A stretch of DNA of 64,000 bases from Centroscyllium fabricii. Its lineage: Eukaryota. Shown one piece after another: positions 5,330-22,700 of the stretch. Position numbers and translations under genes: made by a program. Positions within the stretch are counted from its first letter, which is position 1; each line of letters begins with the position of its first letter. The notes under the pieces are model-generated. The model did not search any database. It worked only from the letters and a program-made list of their open reading frames with translations, and was not told the origin of the DNA. Location: positions 396,552,001-396,616,000 of the forward strand of contig JBNRSN020000002.1 of the NCBI GenBank assembly GCA_051313645.2. Direction: 5' to 3'.

Positions 5330-5935
5330 CATAGATACCAGTGATCCTCTGGTCATTTCTGTGTGAGGCTATGTTTTGGGTATTATGCTATTTGACTGTG
5401 GAAGTTGTCATGGTTGAGTCCAATCCTGTCCACACCCAACATCACGTGCACTTCCAGAGGGGGGTACTGGACAGCAGACAGGAACAGGAACCTCGGCCAG
5501 TTTATCTCCATTCAGTCTAGCACAGCGCCCCTGAGGTCAACTTGTTGTTTTGGTTGAGATTAGCTAACTCAGCACAGATCTGGCTTTCATGGGCTGTGAA
5601 GCTCCGTGTCATAACATGTTCTGCATTCACCTGCTAATCCATGATGGCAGGAGGCATTCTTCGCATTTTGTGAAATGCACCAGTGATGGATTTGCCAAAA
5701 TCATTTTCGAACTTGATTTGCCAAGTGGCCTGTTTCTGTGCTGTAAAAACAAAGTAACTTTTGCACAGGGTTAGAAGGGGAAAAATCAGGGAATTCCTGC
5801 TTCTGATGACCCCTGATGGGAAGACCCCTGATGGGAAGAGATGAAAGGATCCAGTGTGTCTGTGATGTTCTCTTGCTGGGATAGCCTGACATTCTGAGCT
5901 CAAACATGAGGAATAGGCACTTGGACAAGGTACAG
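5330..5935. mobile_element. Two old, divergently oriented AmnSINE2-like SINE remnants
   Basis: Motifs gagattagctaactcagcacaga (minus copy) and ggggaaaaatcagg...tgacccctg...atagcctg...cacttggacaaggtac (plus copy) recalled from the AmnSINE2 consensus. Confidence 0.5.
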
Positions 5936-9722: not shown

Positions 9723-11384
9723 TGTAGGGGTTCTCCAACCTCCTCCTCGAATTTCCAGCAAAAAGACGCAGTGCACGGGAGCACAGGGACAACAGGTCTT
9801 TATTTCAGAAGCTCAACAAACGACTGTTGGCAAAGAGCGCAAAAGCACAAAGCATCATGGAACGAGGAGTGGACGGTTCCCTAGGCCACTCAGGAACCAG
9901 GACAGGGTTGTCGGCTGCCCAATGGCAAAATATGGGCGGGGCCAACTGAGAGATGGTGATTGTGGCTTAAAGGGAAGACCTAGGTTTGCCCGGGTAGCAA
10001 CGCTACATACGCCCCCTCACAATCCCCATGAACATGGTAGGTCAGCCTCCGGGGAGGTCTGACCAAACGGTCGGAACGTGTGGGACAGCCCGCGGGCGTG
10101 AGTGAAACCGGGACGGGCGTGCCTTGGGCGGGGTTGAGGTCCCGCGGGGGCGAGGCAGTGGCGGGCGAGACCGGCGTGGCCACCGGGGGCGGTGAGGGAG
10201 ACGGGGCTCGGTAGGCAGGCTCGACCGGGGCTTGGTCGGGTGTGGCCACACTGGTGGAGGGGAAAAACTCCACGCAGGGGGCCGAAGGCCATTGCTCAGA
10301 ACAAGTGGGATCTAAGTGCGCCGCTTTGAGTCTGTCAATGGACACGAGGTCCCTTCTGCCACCGACCGCGAGGAGGAAAGCTTTATCCCCCGCCTCAAGG
10401 ACACGGAAGGGGCCTATGTATGGCGCCTGTAACGGTGTCTTGTGGGCGTCCTGGCGCACAAACACGAACTGGGCCTGGCAGAGCTCGGCAGACATGTGGG
10501 ACGACCGGGCCCCGTGTGAAGTGGGCACCGGGAGGATGCGAAGGGCCGGGTCGTTGTGGCGATCCAGCTGCTCGCCTGCCGACCAACCCGCGGTGACGGA
10601 AGGGAGGAACTCCCCGGGGATGCGGAGGGGTTGGCCCAGGACGAGTTCAGCCGAAGAGGCGCCAGGGTCGTCCTTGGGCGCCGATCGCAGCCCAAGCAGG
10701 ACCCAGGGGAGTCTGTCGAGCCAGTCGGCGTCGGCCAAGCTGGCACGGAGTGAGGCCTTGAGGGCGCGGTGGAACCATTCGCACAAACCGTTGGCCTGGG
10801 GGTGGTAGGCCATTGTGCGGTGTAACGTGGTCGCTAGGCCGGCGGCGATGGCGCCCCAGAGTTGGGAGGTGAACTCCGGGCCCCTGTCGGAGGTTATGTC
10901 GGACGGGACCCCGAACCGGGCTACCCAGGCGGCGATGAAGGCGCGTGCCACATCGGCCGTGGTAGTGGAGGACAAGGGGACGACCTCCGGCCACCTGGTA
11001 GTGCGGTCGACGACGGTGAGGAGGTGCAGGGCCATTCGGCGGCCGTGACCTGCGCGTTTGAGTCTGGCAATTCGCTGACTGACATCGGGGTCACCAATTG
11101 TAGTGGTTCTCTAACCTCCTATTTGAATTTTTCAGCAAAAAGACGCAGTGCACGGGAGCACAGGGACAACACGTCTTTATTTCGGAAGCTCAACAAACGA
11201 CTGTTGGAAAAGAGCGCGAAAGCGCAAAGCATCATGGAACGAGTGATGGATGGTTCCCTAGGCCACTCAGGAACCAGGACAGGGTTGTCGGCTGCCCAAT
11301 GGCAAAATATGGGCAGGGCCGACAGAGATGGGGGTTGTGGCTTAAAGGGAAGACCCAGGGATTTGCCCGGGTAGCAACGCTACA
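9723..11384 (-). mobile_element. Internally deleted CsRn1-like gypsy element: two LTRs, tRNA-Trp PBS, integrase only
   Basis: LTRs 9723-10007 and 11099-11384 (TG...CA); 4-bp TSD GTAT; PBS TGGTGACCCCGA; PPT GAGGGGG; ORF 9980-11035 VVDRTTRWPE...SDRG...HPQANG...GPF. Confidence 0.92.
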
Positions 11385-13240: not shown

Positions 13241-13823
13241 TCAAAAATCTATCGATCTCTGTCTTGAATATACTCGACGACTGAGCCACCACAGCCCTCT
13301 GGGGTATAAAATTCCAAAGATTCAACACCCTCTGAGTGAAGAAATTTCTCCTCATCGCAGTCCTAAATGGCCGACCCCTTATTCTGAGTCTGTGACCCCG
13401 GTTCTAGACTCCACAGCCAGGCGAAACATCCTCCCTGCATTTACCCTGTCAAGCTCTAAGAATTTTGTATATTTCCATGGGATTACGTCTCATTCTTCTA
13501 AATGCTAGAGAATATAGGCCTAGTCTACTCGGGCCTAGTCTACTCAATCTGATCATAGGACAATTCCCCCCCATCCCAGGAACCAGTCTGGTGAACCTTT
13601 AGAAACATAGAAACATAGAAAATAGGTGCAGGAGTAGACCATTCGGTCCCTCGAGCCTGCACCGCCATTCAATGCGTTCATGGCTGAACATAAGAACACA
13701 AGAAATAGGAGCAGGAGTAGGCCAATCGGCCCCCCGAGCCCGCCCCGCCACCCAACAAGATCATGGCTGATCCTACCCTAACCTTCATACCACTATCACC
13801 CTTCCTCCCACCCAAAGAACCAT

Positions 13824-13941
13824 GTGATCTCCTGGGAGAGGCGAAAAACCGGATAAAAACCCAGGTCCAATTTGGGGAAAAAATCCGGGAAATTCCTCTC
13901 CGACCCCAATCTAGGTGATCGAAACTTGTCCAGGAGATCAC
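13824..13941 (-). ncRNA. Structured cis-RNA element in the CR1 3' UTR, double-ENE-like fold
   Basis: 12-bp closing stem GUGAUCUCCUGG/CCAGGAGAUCAC; arm GAGAGG-AAUUUC-CCGGAU-UUUUU-CCC...GGG-UUUUU-AUCCGG-UUUUUCG-CCUCUC; function inferred. Confidence 0.6.
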
Positions 13942-14359
13942 TCAGGTCTTACTATACTAACAATAGCTCAGGTCCACTTCCCTGCCCGCTCCCCATAACC
14001 CTTAATTCCCTTGTCTGCTAAAAAACAGTCTATTTCCGTTTTAAATTTATTTAATGTTCCCGCTTCCACAGCTCCCTGAGGCAGCGAATTCCATAGATTA
14101 ACCACCCTCTGAGTGAAGAAGTTTCTCCTCATCTCAGTTTTAAAAGAGCCCCTCCTTATTCTAAGACTATGCCCCCTAGTTCTGGTCTCCCCGATCATTG
14201 GAAACATCTTTAGCGCATCCACCCGATCAAGGCCCCTCACGATCTTATACGTTTCAATAAGATCGCCTCTCATTCATAGAATCATAGAAACTTTACAGTG
14301 CGGATAAAGGCCATTCGGCCCATCCAGTCCGCACCGGCCCAGGAAACTCCTCACTATAC

Positions 14360-17238
14360 TAACCCCATTTGCCCGCACCTGGCCCATAACCCTGTATGTT
14401 ACGGTCCTTCATGTGCTGGTCCAAATATTTTTTAAATGTTGCGATGGTTTCTGCCTCCACCACCCTTACAGGCAGGGAGTTCCACACTTCCACCACCCTC
14501 TGAGTAAAGAAATTTCTCCTTACCTCCCCCCCTAAACCTCCCCCCCCTAATCTTGAATCTATGTCCCCTAGTACTTGACTCTCCCACCAAGGGAAACAAT
14601 GCCCCTTTATCCACCCTATCGTGTCCTCTCATGATCCTGTACACCTCAATCATGTCACCCCTCAATCTTCTCTTCTCCAAGGCAAACAACCCCAGCCTGT
14701 CCAGCCTTTCCTCGTAGCATAAGTCCCCCAGACCAGGTATCATCCTGGTAAACCTTCTCTGCACCCTCTCCAGGGCAACCACATCCTTCCTGAAGTGCGG
14801 TGACCAGAACTGCACACAGTACTCCAGCTGAGGTCTCACCAGCGTGTTATACAAGTTTAACATTACCTCCCTACTTTTGTATACTATGCCCTGGTTAATA
14901 AAGGCCAGAATTCCGTATGCCTTCTTAACCACCTTGTTTACGTGTCCAGCAACCTTCAGGGAGCTGTGCACCTGTACCCCAAGGTCCCTCTGTTCCTCGG
15001 TCCTACCTAACGTTTTTTTGTTCATGGTATATTCCCTTACCCCATTTGGTCTGCCGAATTGTATGAACTCGCATTTCTCTGGGTTGAACTCCATTTGCCA
15101 TTTTTCTGCCCAACTAACCATTACATTTATATCTTCCTGGAGCCTTTTACTATCTTCATCGTTATTTACCACCCTTCCAATTTTCGTATCATCAGCAAAT
15201 TTGCTGATCGTACCCCCTACTCCCATGTCCAAATCATTGATGTATACTAGAAACAGTAAGGGTCCCAAAACCGATCCTTCGGGGACACCGCTGGTTACTG
15301 GTTTCCAGTCCCAGAAGCAGCCCTCTACCATTACCCTTTGTCTCCTATCCCCCAGCCAATTTTGAATCCACTGTACCAAGTTGCCCTGTATCCCATGTGC
15401 TTTAACCTTTGTTATTAGTCTCCTATGTGGGACTTTATCAAAAGCCTTGCTGAAGTCCATATACACCACGTCAACCGTACTCCCTTCATCCACCCTCTTT
15501 GTTACCTCTTCAAAAAATTCCAAGAGATTAGTTAGGCACGACTTACCTTTGACGAAGCCATGTTGACTATCCCTTATCAGACCCTGCTTTTCCAAATGCA
15601 GACTGATTTTGTCCCTCAGAATTTTTTCCATTACTTTCCCCACTACAGATGTAAGACTGATTGGCCTATAGTTACCCGGTTTGTCCCTACTACCCTTTTT
15701 AAACAGGGGTACTACATTAGCCGTTCTCCAGTCCTCGGGTACATCCCCTGACGCGAGAGAGGACCTGAAAATTTGAGACAGGGGGCCCGCAAGCTCTTCC
15801 CTGGCCTCGAACAGCAGCCTGGGGAACATCGCGTCCGGCCCTGGTGATTTGTCTACCTTTAAGCTTCCCAAGATTTCTAGTACTTCTTCCCTTGTAATGG
15901 TAATATCCTCAATTACCCCCCCTACACTCTGTCCGATTACGATGTCGGTTCCGTCCCTCTCTCTTGTGAATACTGAAGAGAAAAATTCGTTTAGTACCTC
16001 CCCCACCGCCTCGGGCTCAACGCACAGCTTTCCGCTATGGTCCTTAATGGGCCCCACTCTTTCCCTCGTGATCCTTTTGTTTTTTATATAACTGTAAAAT
16101 GCCTTAGGGTTATCCTTGATTTTGCCGGCCATTGCAATCTCATGACCCCTCTTGGCTTTTCTTATCTCCTTCTTTAATTCCCCCCTATACTTCTTATACT
16201 CCCCTAGCGCCTCCTCGGTTTTTAGCCGTTTATATTCATTGAAGGCCCCCCTTTTTTTCTTCATTAATTTACATATATCCCTAGACATCCAAGATTCCCT
16301 TTGTTTACCTCCCCCGCCCTTGATTTTAGCAGGAACATGTTCCTCCTGTATCTTCCCGACCTTCCCTCTGAAGGCCTCCCACTGCTCTGATGCAGATCTT
16401 CCTCTGAGAAGATGGCCCCAGTCTACTGCGGCTACATCGCGCCTAATTTTAATGAAATCCGCCTTCCCCCAGTTTAGTACTTTTACCCCTGGTCCATTTT
16501 TATCCTTCTCCATTACAATCTTGAAACTAACTGAATTGTGGTCGCTATCCCCGAAGTGCTCCCCCACTGTTACCTCCTCTATCTGCCCGTCTTCGTTCCC
16601 AAGTATTAGGTCTAGTACCGCCCCCCCCCTTGTAGGTGACCCAACATATTGCTTCAAAAAACTCTCTTGGCTGCATTTTAAGAATGCTGAACCTTCCGTG
16701 CCCCTCACACTCTGACAATCCCAGTTGATGTTGGGGAAATTAAAGTCCCCTAATATTATTACTTTGTTATTTTCGCTTATCTTCGTGATTTGCTCACATA
16801 TCATTCCCTCCATCTCCCCTTTACTGTTTGGTGGTCTATAATATACTCCCAGTAAGGTGCCCCCCCCCCCTTTTTATTTTTTACCTCCACCCATAGTGCC
16901 TCGTTTGAGGAATCATCCATTAGGTCGACCCGCCTGATGGCTGTGATTGAATCCTTAATCAGTATCGCTACCCCCCCTCCCCTTTTTCCCTCGTCTCTGT
17001 CCCGCCTGAAAATTCTATACCCCGGAATGTTTAGCTGCCATTCCTGCCCCTCCTTCAGCCACGTCTCCGTGATAGCTACTATATCATAATCCCATGCGTC
17101 AACCAATACCTTTAACTCATCCACCTTGTTAGTCAGACTCCTTGCGTTAAAATATATACCTTTCATTCTCTGACCTAATACTACCTTGTTTTGCTGTGTA
17201 GTCTGCTTACCTTTATTAGGTTGTATTCCCCTACCCAT
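14360..17238 (-). pseudogene. CR1 ORF2 (APE endonuclease plus RT), frameshifted at two G runs
   Basis: YFNARSL, AITETWL, GDFN, SDH, DFSKAFDKVPH, GVPEGSVLGP, KFADD; frame breaks near 16860-16870 and ~14525. Confidence 0.88.
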
Positions 17239-17273
17239 TATGCCTTCACTCTGGGTCCCCTCCCCCTGCCAAT

Positions 17274-18227
17274 TTAGTTTAAACCCACCCCAACCCGACT
17301 ATCAAACCTTCCCGCAAGGATATTGGTCCCGTTCAGGTGCAACCCGTCCGGCATGTACAGGTTCCACTTACCCCAGAAGCAAGACCAATTGTCCAAAAAG
17401 CTGAAACCCTCCTTCCTACACCAACTTCTTAGCCACGAATTAAGCTGCTCTATCTTACGGTTCCTATACTCACTAGCTCGTGGCACTGGGAGTAATCCAG
17501 AGATTACAACCTTTGGGGTCCTGCTTTTTAGCTTTTTACCCAGCTCCCTAAATTCTCTTTGCAGGACCTCGTCCCCCTTTTTTCCTATGTCGTTGGTGCC
17601 AATGTGGACCACAACTTCTACCTGGTTCCCCTCCCCCCTCAAGATGTCCTGCAGCCGATCCGTGACATCCCGGACCCTGGCACCAGGGAGGCAAGTAACC
17701 ATCCTGGTGTCACGTCTGCGGCCGCAGAACCGCCTCTCTGTGCCCCTTACGATTGAATCCCCTATTACTACTGCTGGCACACTGGTTTCCCTCCCATTCT
17801 GGGCAGCCCCAGCACCCCTAGTGCCAGGAAGTAGGCTGCTGCTGCCCTCCCCTGGTAGGTCCTCCCCCTCCGCAGTATCCAAAACGGTATAACTGCTGGA
17901 CAGGGGGACGGCCACAGGGGTTCCCTGCACTTCCTTCCTCACTCTGGCACTCCTCTTGGTGGTCACCCCATTTCCTTCTATCTGGTCTACTCTAGTCTTT
18001 GGTGTGACCACCCTCTCAAACGTGCTGTCCACGACCTGCTCATCGTTGTCTACGCCCCATAATGCTTCCATCCGCAGTTCCAGCGCCGTCATGCGGCCGG
18101 CTAAGATCTGTAGATGGATGCATTTCCTGCATACGTGTACCTCAGGGGCCCCATCCGGGCCCCTGAATTCCCACATATTACAGGTGGAGCATATGACTGC
18201 GATGGCCTGCACTGCCATTTCTCCCAT
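17274..18227 (-). CDS. CR1 ORF1 protein: zinc finger, coiled coil, SGNH esterase domain
   Basis: CSTC...CRKC; VVIGDSIVRG, PGA, HIGTND, DGLHL blocks; intact 317 aa. Confidence 0.9.
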   Translation of the reverse strand: MGEMAVQAIAVICSTCNMWEFRGPDGAPEVHVCRKCIHLQILAGRMTALELRMEALWGVDNDEQVVDSTFERVVTPKTRVDQIEGNGVTTKRSARVRKEVQGTPVAVPLSSSYTVLDTAEGEDLPGEGSSSLLPGTRGAGAAQNGRETSVPAVVIGDSIVRGTERRFCGRRRDTRMVTCLPGARVRDVTDRLQDILRGEGNQVEVVVHIGTNDIGKKGDEVLQREFRELGKKLKSRTPKVVISGLLPVPRASEYRNRKIEQLNSWLRSWCRKEGFSFLDNWSCFWGKWNLYMPDGLHLNGTNILAGRFDSRVGVGLN

Positions 18228-18575
18228 TTTATATCTTAAATCCCTTGTTCTAGTAGCCTTAATCTACTCTGACTTTAGACCGGTCTATAAAGTACCCTTC
18301 GTTTCCTTTTTAGATTTACTGAATCCCACTACTTTTAGTAGTTTTGGAAAAGTTTGAGGAAAGTACTCACCAGTCCCTTGCCTCCTGTTGTGAAGGTTTT
18401 TCTCTGTCCTGGAACCCTTTCCACCTAGGTTGGGCTCCTGAAAATAAAATACTTTGAACTTACCTTTTTTTTTAAATCGCTCTAACCCCCTAAGGTTAGA
18501 GGAGGATGGAAGGGTGGGAAACACTACCACGTAGTGTTTCGGGTTTAGCACACAGCTCCCCTTTTATACTGCAAA

Positions 18576-19752
18576 GAAAGTCCCACGAGACTTGCAGAGA
18601 CTTGTCCCGCCCCCCGCTCCTCTGCTGACGGCTTTTTAAAAAAGCCCGCGCTGGCTCAGCCCTCCTGGCTCCGTTTCCCTGAAAGCAACGCAGCTCCCCT
18701 GGAAGGAAAGGAAAGGAATTTACCTGTCCTTCTCTCCTGGCTCAGCTCCCCTGAAGCAGCGTTAGCTCAGCTCCCCTGGAAGGAAAGTTTCTTTGAACTT
18801 ACCGTTTCTCAGCACACAGAAAGTCCCACGAGACTTGCAGAGACTTGTCCCGCCCCCCGCTCCTCTGCTGACGGCTTTTTAAAAAAGCCCGCGCTGGCTC
18901 AGCCCTCCTGGCTCCGTTTCCCTGAAAGCAACGCAGCTCCCCTGGAAGGAAAGGAAAGGAATTTACCTGTCCTTCTCTCCTGGCTCAGCTCCCCTGAAGC
19001 AGCGTTAGCTCAGCTCCCCTGGAAGGAAAGTTTCTTTGAACTTACCGTTTCTCAGCACACAGAAAGTCCCACGAGACTTGCAGAGACTTGTCCCGCCCCC
19101 CGCTCCTCTGCTGACGGCTTTTTAAAAAAGCCCGCGCTGGCTCAGCCCTCCTGGCTCCGTTTCCCTGAAAGCAACGCAGCTCCCCTGGAAGGAAAGGAAA
19201 GGAATTTACCTGTCCTTCTCTCCTGGCTCAGCTCCCCTGAAGCAGCGTTAGCTCAGCTCCCCTGGAAGGAAAGTTTCTTTGAACTTACCGTTTCTCAGCA
19301 CACAGAAAGTCCCACGAGACTTGCAGAGACTTGTCCCGCCCCCCGCTCCTCTGCTGACGGCTTTTTAAAAAAGCCCGCGCTGGCTCAGCCCTCCTGGCTC
19401 CGTTTCCCTGAAAGCAACGCAGCTCCCCTGGAAGGAAAGGAAAGGAATTTACCTGTCCTTCTCTCCTGGCTCAGCTCCCCTGAAGCAGCGTTAGCTCAGC
19501 TCCCCTGGAAGGAAAGTTTCTTTGAACTTACCGTTTCTCAGCACACAGAAAGTCCCACGAGACTTGCAGAGACTTGTCCCGCCCCCCGCTCCTCTGCTGA
19601 CGGCTTTTTAAAAAATCCCGCGCTGGCTCAGCCCTCCTGGCTCCGTTTCCCTGAAAGCAACGCAGCTCCCCTGGAAGGAAAGGAAAGGAATTTACCTGTC
19701 CTTCTCTCCTGGCTCAGCTCCCCTGAAGCAGCGTTAGCTCAGCTCCCCTGGA
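18576..19752 (-). repeat. 243-bp tandem monomer array, 4 full copies plus 1 partial, near identical
   Basis: TCCCACGAGAC at 18581, 18824, 19067, 19310, 19553. Confidence 0.97.
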
Positions 19753-22700
19753 CTCTAATGTTCTTCTGAACTCTAATGAGTAAAGTCCCAGCCTATTTAA
19801 CCTTTCCTCATATGTCAACCCCCTCATCCCTGGAATTAACCGTGTAAACCTTCTCTGCACTGCCTCCAGAGCAAGTACATCCTTTCTTAAGTATGGACAC
19901 CAAAACTGCACACAGTATTCCAAATGCGGTCTCACCAATACTGTGTACAGCTGCAGCAAAACCTCCCTGCTTTTATACTCTATCCCCCTAGCAATAAAGG
20001 CTAAGACTCCATTGGCCTTCCTAATCACTTGCTGCACCTGCATACTAACTTTTTGTGATTCATGCACTAATACCCCCAGGTCCCTTTGCGTTGTATTACC
20101 ACGCAGCTCCTCCCCATTTAGAAAATAACTTGCTCTATGATTTTTTTTCCCAAAATGTATAACTTCACATTTACCAGTATTAAATTTCATCTGCCAAATC
20201 GCTGCCCACTCACCTAGCTTATCTATGTCCTTTTGCAGGCTTTTTCTGTCCTCCTCACTCCCTGCTTTTCCTCCCATTTTTGTGTCATCTGCAAACTTTG
20301 ATATATTACACTTGGTCCCCTCCTCCAAATCATTTATATAGATTGTAAACAGCTGGGGTCCCAGCACCGACCCCTGCGGAACACCACTAGTCACCGATTG
20401 CCATCCCGAGTATGAACCATTTATCCCAACTCTCTGCTTCCTGTTTGAAAGCCAATCCTCTACCCATGCTAATATATTACCCCCAATCCCGTAATTTTTT
20501 ATTTTAAGCAATAGTCTCTTATGTGGCACCTTGTCAAAAGCCTTTTGGAAGTCCAAGTATACCACATCCACCAGTTCCCCTTTATCCACCCGAGATGTTA
20601 CATCCTCAAAGAATTCGAGCAAATTAGTCAAACATGACTTCCCCTTCGTAAAACCATGCTGACTCTGTCCGATTAAGTTATGTTTATCCAAATGCCCCGT
20701 CAGTGTTTCTTTAATAATGGTCTCCAACATTTTACCCACCACGGATGTTAGACTAACCGGTCTGTAGTTACCAGCCTTCTGTCTACTTCCCTTTTTAAAT
20801 ATAGGTGTTACATTAGCCATTTTCCAATCCACCGGGACCCTTCCTGACTCCAGGGAGTTTTGGAAAATTATCACCAATGCATCTACAATCCCCACCGCTA
20901 TTTCTCTCAAGACCCTAGGATGTAATCCATCAGGCCCAGGGGATTTATCCGCCTTAAGTCCCATTAATTTACCTAATACCATCTCCTTAGTGATCTTAAT
21001 AGTGCTTAGCTCCTCCATTCCTATAGCCCCCTGTTTATCCAGCGTTGGAATATTTTTAATGTCTTCTACAGTAAAGACTGATACAAAATATTCGTTTAAT
21101 GCTTTTGCCATCTCCATGTTCCCCACCAACAAATTCCCAGTCTCACCCTCCAATGGACCAACATTCGCCTTAGCCACCCTTTTTCTTTTTATATAACTAT
21201 AAAAACTCTTGCTATTAGTTTTTATATTTTTCGCTAATTTACTTTCATAATCTATTTTCCCCTTCTTAATTAACCTCTTTGTTATTTTTTGCTGACTTTT
21301 AAATGCTTCCCAATCTTCTGTCTTCCCACTGTATCTGGCTACCTTATATGCCCTTGCCTTTAGCCGAATACTATCCTTTATTACTTTACTTAGCCATGGT
21401 TGGCTGTCCTTTCCTTTACCCCTCTTTTTCTTCAGTGGAATGTATTTTTCTTGAAAGTTGTACACTAACTCCTTAAAAGTACACCACTGCTCATGTACCG
21501 TCTTATTCTTTAGTCTGTTATCCCAATCTACTTTAATCAATTCTGTTCTCATACCTTCATAATCTCCCTTGTTTAGACTAAGTACCCTGGTTTGAGTTTC
21601 AATTTGCTCCCCTTCTAATTGAATATGGAATTCAACCATATTATGGTCACTCATTCCAAGAGGGTCCCTAACTATGACATTTTTAATTAATCCTGCTTCA
21701 TTACACAGGACCAGATCCAAGATTGCCTCCCCCCTAGTCGGTTCAGTTACATACTGTTCTAAGAACCCATCCCTGATACACTCTATAAACTCTTCCTCTA
21801 GTCTACCCTGCCCAGTTTGATTTGCCCAGTTAATATGAAAGTTAAAGTCCCCCATGATTACAGCCGTTCCCTTATTACATGCTTCAACTATTTGCTGATT
21901 TATGTTCTGACCAACAGAGTCACAACTAACTCCCAGTCCTGATCACCCTCTGTGGCAAGTATATCCTTCCTTAGGTAAGGAGATCAAAATATACAATACT
22001 CCGGGTGTGGTCTCACCAGGCCCCATATATTGCAGTAAGACATCTTTACTCTTATAATCAAATCCTCTTGTAATAAAGGCCAACATACCATTTGCTTTCC
22101 TAATTGCTTGCTGTACCTGCATGTTAACTTTGTGATTTGTGTACAAGGACACCCAGGTCCCTCTGAATTCCAACATTTCCCAATCTCTTGCCATTTAAAA
22201 ATTACTCTGCTTTTCTATTTTTCCTACCAAAGTGGATAACTTCACATTCCTCCACATTATATTCCACTTGCCATGTTCTTGCCCACTCACCTTAGCCTGT
22301 CTGTATCCACTTGAAGCCTCCTTGCATCCTCCTCACAACTTACAATCTCACCCAGCTTTGTATCATCAGCAAACTTGGATATATTTGGTCCCCTCATCCA
22401 AACCATTGATATAGATTGTGAATAACTGAGGCCCAAGCACTGATCCTTGCGGTACCCCACTGGTTACAGCCTGACAACCCGAAAATGAGCCGTTTATTCC
22501 TACTCTCTGATTTCTGTCCGTTAACCAATCCTCAATCCATGCTAGTATATTACTCCCAATCCTATGAGCACTAATTTTGTTTAATAAGCTCTTGTGTGGC
22601 ACCTTATCGAATGTCTTCTGAAAATCCAAATCCAAATACACCACATCCACTGGTTCCCCCTTATCTATTCTGCTAGTTACAGCCTCAAAAAATTCAAACA

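Follow-up and report, generated by a model that had tools for sequence, protein, structure and literature searches.

Why should a young CR1 element carry, just past its ORF2 stop codon, a segment of 118 nt that the other CR1 copies around it lack? The first-pass annotation of this locus, which lies in a 64,000-nt stretch of Centroscyllium fabricii DNA (the window, by which we mean the whole stretch), had read the segment as a double-ENE-like RNA element, that is, one that captures poly(A) in a triple helix. The sequence that it quoted does lie at 13824-13941 on the minus strand, and the module begins 26 nt past the ORF2 stop codon of a young CR1 copy. This copy spans 21928 to about 13600 and is interrupted by a nested 5.5-kb CR1; its parts, in the order of transcription, are the following.

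19761..21928, minus strand: 5′ portion of this family A copy (ORF2, truncated at its 5′ end), 99.4% identical to L062 over 2168 nt
14276..19760, minus strand: CR1 of a different family that lacks the module, nested within ORF2
13968..14275, minus strand: 3′ end of the CR1 ORF2, including the stop codon at 13968-13970, 99.4% identical to intact L062
13824..13941, minus strand: the whole module, a three-way junction of 118 nt (fold, covariance model, shuffles)
13687..13775, minus strand: first CR1 tail, a stem-loop region and short repeat (5′ edge approximate)
13600..13686, minus strand: second, appended CR1 tail, ending in TTTCTATG repeats, the true 3′ end of the subfamily

L062 is a genomic copy with an unbroken ORF2, and its Pfam domains are PF03372, PF14529, PF00078 and PF13472. 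The element has the traits of the CR1 clade (an ORF2 with endonuclease and reverse transcriptase, an esterase-like ORF1, and a tail of hairpin and short repeat), and its closest named relatives, at 67-68% identity, are from cartilaginous fishes, for which reason the host is referred to below as shark-like. Older copies terminate at the first tail. The second tail was present in 30 of 30 loci, although partly replaced in one of them (L008), and it looks like the product of the same kind of 3′ end exchange that we describe below for the module. Because this tail is appended, the true end of the element is about 225 nt from the module and not about 135 nt, as had been annotated. The statement that other CR1 tails of the window lack the module held for those that were read, and a covariance-model search of the window turned up no further copy; a candidate decayed copy at about 5760-5830 found no support and was dropped.

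Several neighbouring features deserve mention in their own right. The appended second tail, which is of another type, occurs in the youngest subfamilies, and in some of them the repeat that separates the tails has grown and decayed. The nested CR1 has ORF1 and ORF2, shows a 3-nt overlap at its junction and contains a tandem repeat in its 5′ region (about 18550-19750). Elsewhere in the window, at 9980-11110 on the minus strand, there is a 376-codon frame that by eye is integrase-like and belongs to an LTR retrotransposon. Finally, a relative of the CR1 ORF2 (protein P0084, 58% identical) appears in the record of a bacterial assembly, on a contig of 3 kb; this record probably contains host DNA.

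The module is a real structure, as first described. Folding reproduced the 12-bp closing stem, the side hairpin and the arm with two U-rich loops, with the following layout (RNA 5′ to 3′ on the minus strand, with partner strands given alongside).

13930..13941, minus strand: P1, closing stem of 12 bp, 5′ strand, partner 13824-13835 (fold and covariation)
13902..13920, minus strand: P2, side hairpin carrying a single bulged base; in family D2, C-G has become U-A
13895..13901, minus strand: P3, 5′ strand, partner 13835-13841; three double changes in the metagenomic sequence L144, one in group E
13889..13894, minus strand: lower U-rich loop, 5′ strand AAUUUC, 6 nt in 9 of 9 groups
13883..13888, minus strand: P4, spacer stem of 6 bp, partner 13849-13854; double changes at 13886/13851 and 13883/13854
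13877..13882, minus strand: upper U-rich loop, 5′ strand UUUUUC, interrupted by A in 3,072 copies and absent from L144
13860..13876, minus strand: P5, top stem with its apical loop, in which AAUUGG is invariant; two double changes, families A/B/C against D/E
13855..13859, minus strand: upper U-rich loop, 3′ strand UUUUU (group alignment, shuffles)
13842..13848, minus strand: lower U-rich loop, 3′ strand UUUUUCG (group-level alignment)

Base 13835 could pair in either P1 or P3, and the bulged base of P2, a G in the majority of every group, is an A (13916) in the window copy. The minus-strand fold has an energy of -56.7 kcal/mol (z -4.17), equalled in stability by none of 200 shuffles, and its helix pair probabilities are at least 0.92 throughout except in the top stem (0.66-0.74). 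The plus strand folds almost equally well (z -4.24), so that energy alone cannot fix the strand. Loops of this kind are rarely produced by chance: two U3/U3 loops appeared in 2 of 2000 dinucleotide shuffles and one U4/U4 loop in 22 of 2000, while among 2166 tiles of the window a U4/U4 loop occurred once and two loops never, and no tile had the module in register.

The details of the two loops differ. In the upper loop, the A just after the 3′ U tract has a partner, namely the U that opens the 5′ tract; the pair is U-A in families A, B, C and F, and G-C in D and E. This A is thus not an unpaired PAN-like feature, which corrects the likeness to the PAN ENE core that had been annotated. Next to its loop, an ENE would have G-C pairs as A-minor receptors. 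Directly under the upper loop, families A, B and C have U-A and A-U, while D and E have G-C. Below the lower loop there are two invariant G-C pairs, which follow an A-G and an A-Y pair; the A-G and A-C/A-U pairs between the lower U tract and P3 are our own reading. The lower loop has two invariant A residues, not three, and its 5′ strand holds only three U, together with a C, in the shark-like groups.

A tight pattern retrieved 11,078 copies from this genome and none from the reversed control. Looser patterns and DNA searches yielded further groups, namely B (677 pattern matches, a few of which are A-type or chance), C, the older D1, D2 and F, and E; the module is thus also present in older CR1 families that are unrelated to that of the window copy. 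Many copies of family B (L074-L103) have an A-rich stretch with AATAAA about 25 nt after the module, a feature absent from A and C. Group E (L242-L244, L251, L256, L265) comprises 7 copies in duplicated DNA; it is an unusually well-kept old D-type module with a compensated P3 pair, and an AATAAA lies about 190 nt downstream. We considered group E as the exapted 3′ end of a gene and rejected the idea, as the surroundings are repeat-rich duplicated DNA in which no host gene was seen within 30 kb.

The module also occurs outside this genome. Contigs covered it in 4 of 4 sequencing runs from four other organisms, most of the listed contig pieces beginning and ending near the module edges, and all four runs showed both changes of one P4 pair. 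These runs consist of contigs whose RNA origin is a guess, and they carry no information on expression or on 3′ ends. More distant is L144, a one-loop form on a non-shark metagenome contig and the one true match among at least 105 metagenome matches, the other 104 being chance by eye. It scored 32.7 bits (E 2.5e-5) with a model built without it, against 20.3 bits for the best chance match among the 80 of these matches that were scored. L144 comprises P1, P2 (including the bulged G), P3, a lower loop of U4 against U6 and the AUUGG loop, and has no upper loop; the pattern used in the search did not cover its 5′ half. Next to this module we detected no CR1 ORF2. At 800-1240 on the minus strand, the module is followed by two decayed tandem copies and stands downstream of an open frame of 163 codons, for which we found no Pfam family above cut-off and no longer homologue. 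L144 is possibly an exapted 3′ end in DNA that looks amniote-like by eye. The motif that the first-pass annotation mentioned for amphibian and reptile CR1 tails was found once, in this metagenomic sequence, and the CR1 3′ UTR setting that it had given was not. Other searches were negative: nothing in the window reached the Rfam gathering score, and 13590-14000 gave a single chance match (raiA, E 0.67); viral contigs gave 0 matches and then 6 pattern matches, the best at 16 bits, which we take as chance; and prokaryote genomes gave 1 match, which looked like chance by eye and which the covariance model did not list.

With these groups in hand, stem covariation and U-tract conservation could be checked, as had been proposed: the stems covary and both U tracts are kept, in sequences that are related and partly selected by pattern, so that the scores below do not amount to formal probabilities. 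One alignment held 33 natural copies, namely the window copy and 32 others from among the 40 that lie closest to the majority of their family. In it, 85.8% of cells were paired and 13 of 32 pairs showed a double change, while slid partners gave only 28-52% of cells paired. The covariation score was 0.195 against 0.156 in shuffles, with 0 of 500 as high, in a control that ignores the relatedness of the sequences. For 99 model-fitted matches the score was 0.214 against 0.156, in an alignment that leans towards the structure. At the level of groups, both sides had changed in 13 of 32 pairs and 26 of 288 cells were unpaired, several of them because L144 has no P5 and because of register errors. 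The clearest double changes are in P2 (C-G to U-A), P3 (the three in L144), P4 and P5, and a further one, U-A to G-C at the top of P4, falls outside the model. Family B breaks two pairs. Throughout, U tracts on both strands persist while P4 and P5 change, and the upper-loop strands are 63-90% U in all 8 shark-like groups. The search patterns used for families A and B and for some of D2 fix parts of the module; no such pattern was used for C, which has the same cores. RNAalifold, given a gappy alignment, did not recover the fold and returned a weak alternative (-2.6 kcal/mol).

By our count, G-U cells outnumber A-C cells at group level (23 to 6), which favours the sense RNA strand, and selection would thus appear to act on the RNA. 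As an RNA structure within the 3′ UTR of an intronless LINE, the module is both conserved and covarying, and its U tracts face each other.

How did the lineage come by it? That it had acquired the module is likely, as the annotation proposed, and the evidence is of two kinds. First, in the ORF2 tree the A and B ends group with module-less CR1s of the window (support 98/96 and 99/100), apart from C, D and F; the ORF2 ends of C and A are only about 40-50% identical. Second, there are chimeric copies: four have a B-type ORF2 and a complete short tail followed by about 170 nt of C-type ORF2 end and the module, two are without the middle of this captured C-type stretch, and B and A are without nearly all of it. 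From the chimeras to B and A, the stop-to-module distances are 278, 110, 21 and 26 nt. This graded spacing suggests that a module-less lineage captured a foreign 3′ end and then lost, step by step, all but the module, although the tree leaves the chimeras unordered.

Conservation between families is concentrated in the module. Measured on column majorities against a background of 0.51, identity in module and flanks was 0.92 versus 0.45-0.58 for A-C, 0.82 versus 0.52-0.69 for C-D1 and 0.86 versus 0.57-0.62 for D1-D2; overall, modules of different families are 71-92% identical while their flanks are near background. When an old 551-nt copy was used as the query, 37 of its 39 other matches were confined to the module. 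The module has likely moved between CR1 families by template switching.

With regard to function, the role that fits best, by analogy with known systems, is that of an ENE-like clamp on the poly(A) tail that slows decay, a reading to which we would give roughly an even chance of being right. ENEs are described as stem-loops with a U-rich internal loop beside G-C pairs, in single- or double-domain form (Brown 2020, PMC7583470, in the part available to us). The module has an internal loop that is U-rich on both strands within a stem-loop. Its place is close to the 3′ end of an intronless transcript: in A, B and C, 103-132 nt separate it from the first terminal repeat downstream. Its facing U tracts, which cannot pair with each other and are kept amid changing stems, are the kind of signature by which ENEs are identified in the same source (PMC7583470, in part). 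In our working model, the facing U tracts would clamp the transcript's poly(A) tail in U-A-U triples and so slow deadenylation of the intronless LINE RNA, with stabilisation as the presumed benefit. The lower loop would be the old core, with 3-4 triples over the A-G, the A-Y and the two G-C pairs, and the upper loop a second domain of 4-5 triples, so far seen only in shark-like forms.

The third strand would be the poly(A) tail itself, as no A-tract is encoded or conserved: comparison of the families found no conserved A-rich tract downstream of the module, and a run of eight A within 420 nt downstream occurred in only 2 of 123 copies. An A12 within 30 nt of a slightly shortened tail was found at only 6 places, against 45,287 exact tails, and no poly(A) loose end was present among the listed contig pieces of the four sequencing runs. 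A missing A-tract is what one would expect if reverse transcription starts in short repeats, as is described for stringent-type LINEs (PMC3747384, in the text available). The C on the lower 5′ strand would give a triple of a type tolerated in MALAT1, where C-A-U triples retain at least 30% of stability and a purine at that position destabilises the triples (PMC4836648, in part). There is also precedent for benefit to a retroelement, in that an ENE raised the retrotransposition of Evade (PMC12501189, in the portion seen).

Several observations speak against an ENE: (i) in a subfamily of 3,072 copies the upper 5′ U tract is interrupted by an A, and a purine there destabilises triples, although four U remain; (ii) directly under the upper loop, families A, B and C have U-A and A-U rather than G-C; (iii) the invariant apical AAUUGG and the hairpin with its bulged G are left unaccounted for; (iv) the lack of an encoded or conserved A-tract and the rarity of A12 near the tail, described above; (v) the lower 5′ strand offers only three U in the shark-like groups; and (vi) the bulge of 3-4 nt typical of plant double ENEs is missing from the lower domain. 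In computed folds, oligo(A) did not invade the structure as a plain duplex, a result that is neutral to the ENE reading.

The third of these observations is the natural starting point for the strongest alternative, which we consider unlikely while taking it seriously: that the module is a protein platform just past the stop codon, bound by a pyrimidine-tract or other host factor or by ORF1p or ORF2p, and serving either to shield read-through CR1 transcripts, with their long 3′ ends, against NMD, for which the Rous sarcoma virus stability element provides an analogy, or in RNP assembly. The invariant single-stranded AAUUGG and the bulged G do resemble recognition sites, and no nearby poly(A) would be necessary. 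Such a role would also make sense of the tight distance from stop codon to module, 21-32 nt in families A, B, C and D1, on which the chimeras converge; towards the 3′ end the spacing is looser, ranging between about 100 and 225 nt. Against this, the copies with spacings of 278 and 110 nt also transposed, and U tracts that face each other in register, twice, exceed what a single-strand binder needs. CR1s without the module transpose as well, with the same tail type, so that the module is not required for reverse transcription.

The same invariant elements could instead be parts of a compact tertiary fold, a hypothetical arrangement in which the apical loop would dock on the lower loop, P4 or the side hairpin, the whole acting as a switch or a 3′-end processing element and the U tracts being hinges or U-U stacks. 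The shark-like groups and L144 have the three-way junction, the bulged G and the AUUGG loop in common, the apical AAAUU is complementary to the AAUUU of the lower loop, and RNAalifold pairs the apical UUGG with the 5′ strand of P4. However, none of these contacts covary, L144 has CAUUGG and a P4 that precludes them, and no Rfam ribozyme matched; we regard this fold as improbable, and more so than a protein platform.

It is very improbable that the module works as DNA, as an enhancer or antisense promoter made of transcription factor sites. On the plus strand, GGGAAATTCC (13887-13896) matches the NF-kB consensus and CCAAT (13867-13871) that of NF-Y, and these are the least variable positions of the module. 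The kB-like match occurs in 56 of 60 copies of family A, 26 of 29 of B, 17 of 30 of C and 21 of 26 of D2; but B and much of D2 were found with a pattern that included the site, the match is present in 0 of 4 F and 2 of 7 D1 copies, and covariation in five stems and the 3′ U tracts would be left unaccounted for. Just as little credence is due to the module being a passenger, once functional or never so, carried along in 3′ end swaps: recent recombination alone would explain the high A-C identity, two pairs are broken in family B and the tree leaves the order of the chimeras open, but the shorter forms are without the captured flanks and yet have the module whole, double changes arose after capture (A has G-C where B and C have A-U), and the module is conserved among C, D1 and D2 while the flanks are near background.

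We now return to the poly(A) clamp. A broader picture, which we put forward as a possibility somewhat short of even, is that vertebrate CR1 LINEs possess an ancient and portable clamp with a new architecture, an ENE set in a three-way junction, with one loop outside sharks and doubled within them, which would be traded under selection by 3′ capture and trimming. If the clamp is real, the mechanism extends to animal non-LTR elements, and LINEs with short repeats at their ends would nonetheless rely on a poly(A) tail without copying it. Whatever the mechanism, natural copies record what appears to be the capture and trimming of a covarying RNA structure, and one genome holds both intact young copies with the module and close relatives without it, which makes direct testing possible.

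The module is apparently undescribed so far, and it is absent from Rfam. We found no ENE or comparable element in a LINE in the literature that our searches covered, mostly at the level of listings and abstract openings, and the primary ENE tables may list further animal cases; the transposon ENEs listed in the available part of one review are from plants, fungi, slime mould and stickleback retroviruses only (PMC7583470), and the motif was absent from the one supplement of PMC11303007 that we searched. Accounts of CR1-clade LINEs, including the shark element HER1 (PMC4316615 and PMC3747384, both in part), describe features common to our element: an esterase-like ORF1, an ORF2 with endonuclease and reverse transcriptase, a 3′ hairpin, an 8-nt repeat tail and frequent 5′ truncation. 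At the 3′ end, what was available of these accounts covers the terminal hairpin and repeat only, whereas the module is a separate entity 100-225 nt upstream.

Among known ENEs, the single-domain element of KSHV PAN shares the U5/U5 loop between helices, in which five U-A-U triples would be possible in principle; it differs in that the module has a second loop and, in A-C, U-A and A-U rather than G-C pairs under the upper one (PMC7583470, in part). The ENE of Arabidopsis Evade/Copia93 likewise places U-rich loops downstream of the ORF and ahead of the 3′ end in a retroelement that is active, but Evade is an LTR element in which triplex formation was tested, while the module sits in a LINE and its triplex is a prediction (PMC12501189, in the portion seen).

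The closest comparison is with the TWIFB1-type double ENEs of plant and fungal transposons, which share with the module two U-rich loops on one arm with a short duplex between them (PMC7583470, PMC13541005), a small internal loop interrupting the lower stem, and a position near the 3′ end of an intronless transposon RNA, as far as the available text of these sources goes. Two U-rich loops with a short duplex are present in 8 of 8 shark-like groups, while L144 has one loop. Of the original label "double ENE", the two facing U-loops thus stand. The bulge of 3-4 nt that the available part of PMC7583470 gives for the lower domain is found in no group, and the deeply conserved loop of the module is the lower one, whereas in TWIFB1, according to the same sources, the upper domain does most of the work; of the adenosine triad and 3′-end pocket, known to us through the wording of a review, the triad is not clear in the module. 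With one defining feature of TWIFB1 failing, the module should not be filed under that type. It is further set apart by a spacer of 6 bp, a three-way junction, a hairpin with a bulged G and an invariant apical loop, and its host, unlike those of the TWIFB1 type, is a vertebrate non-LTR element.
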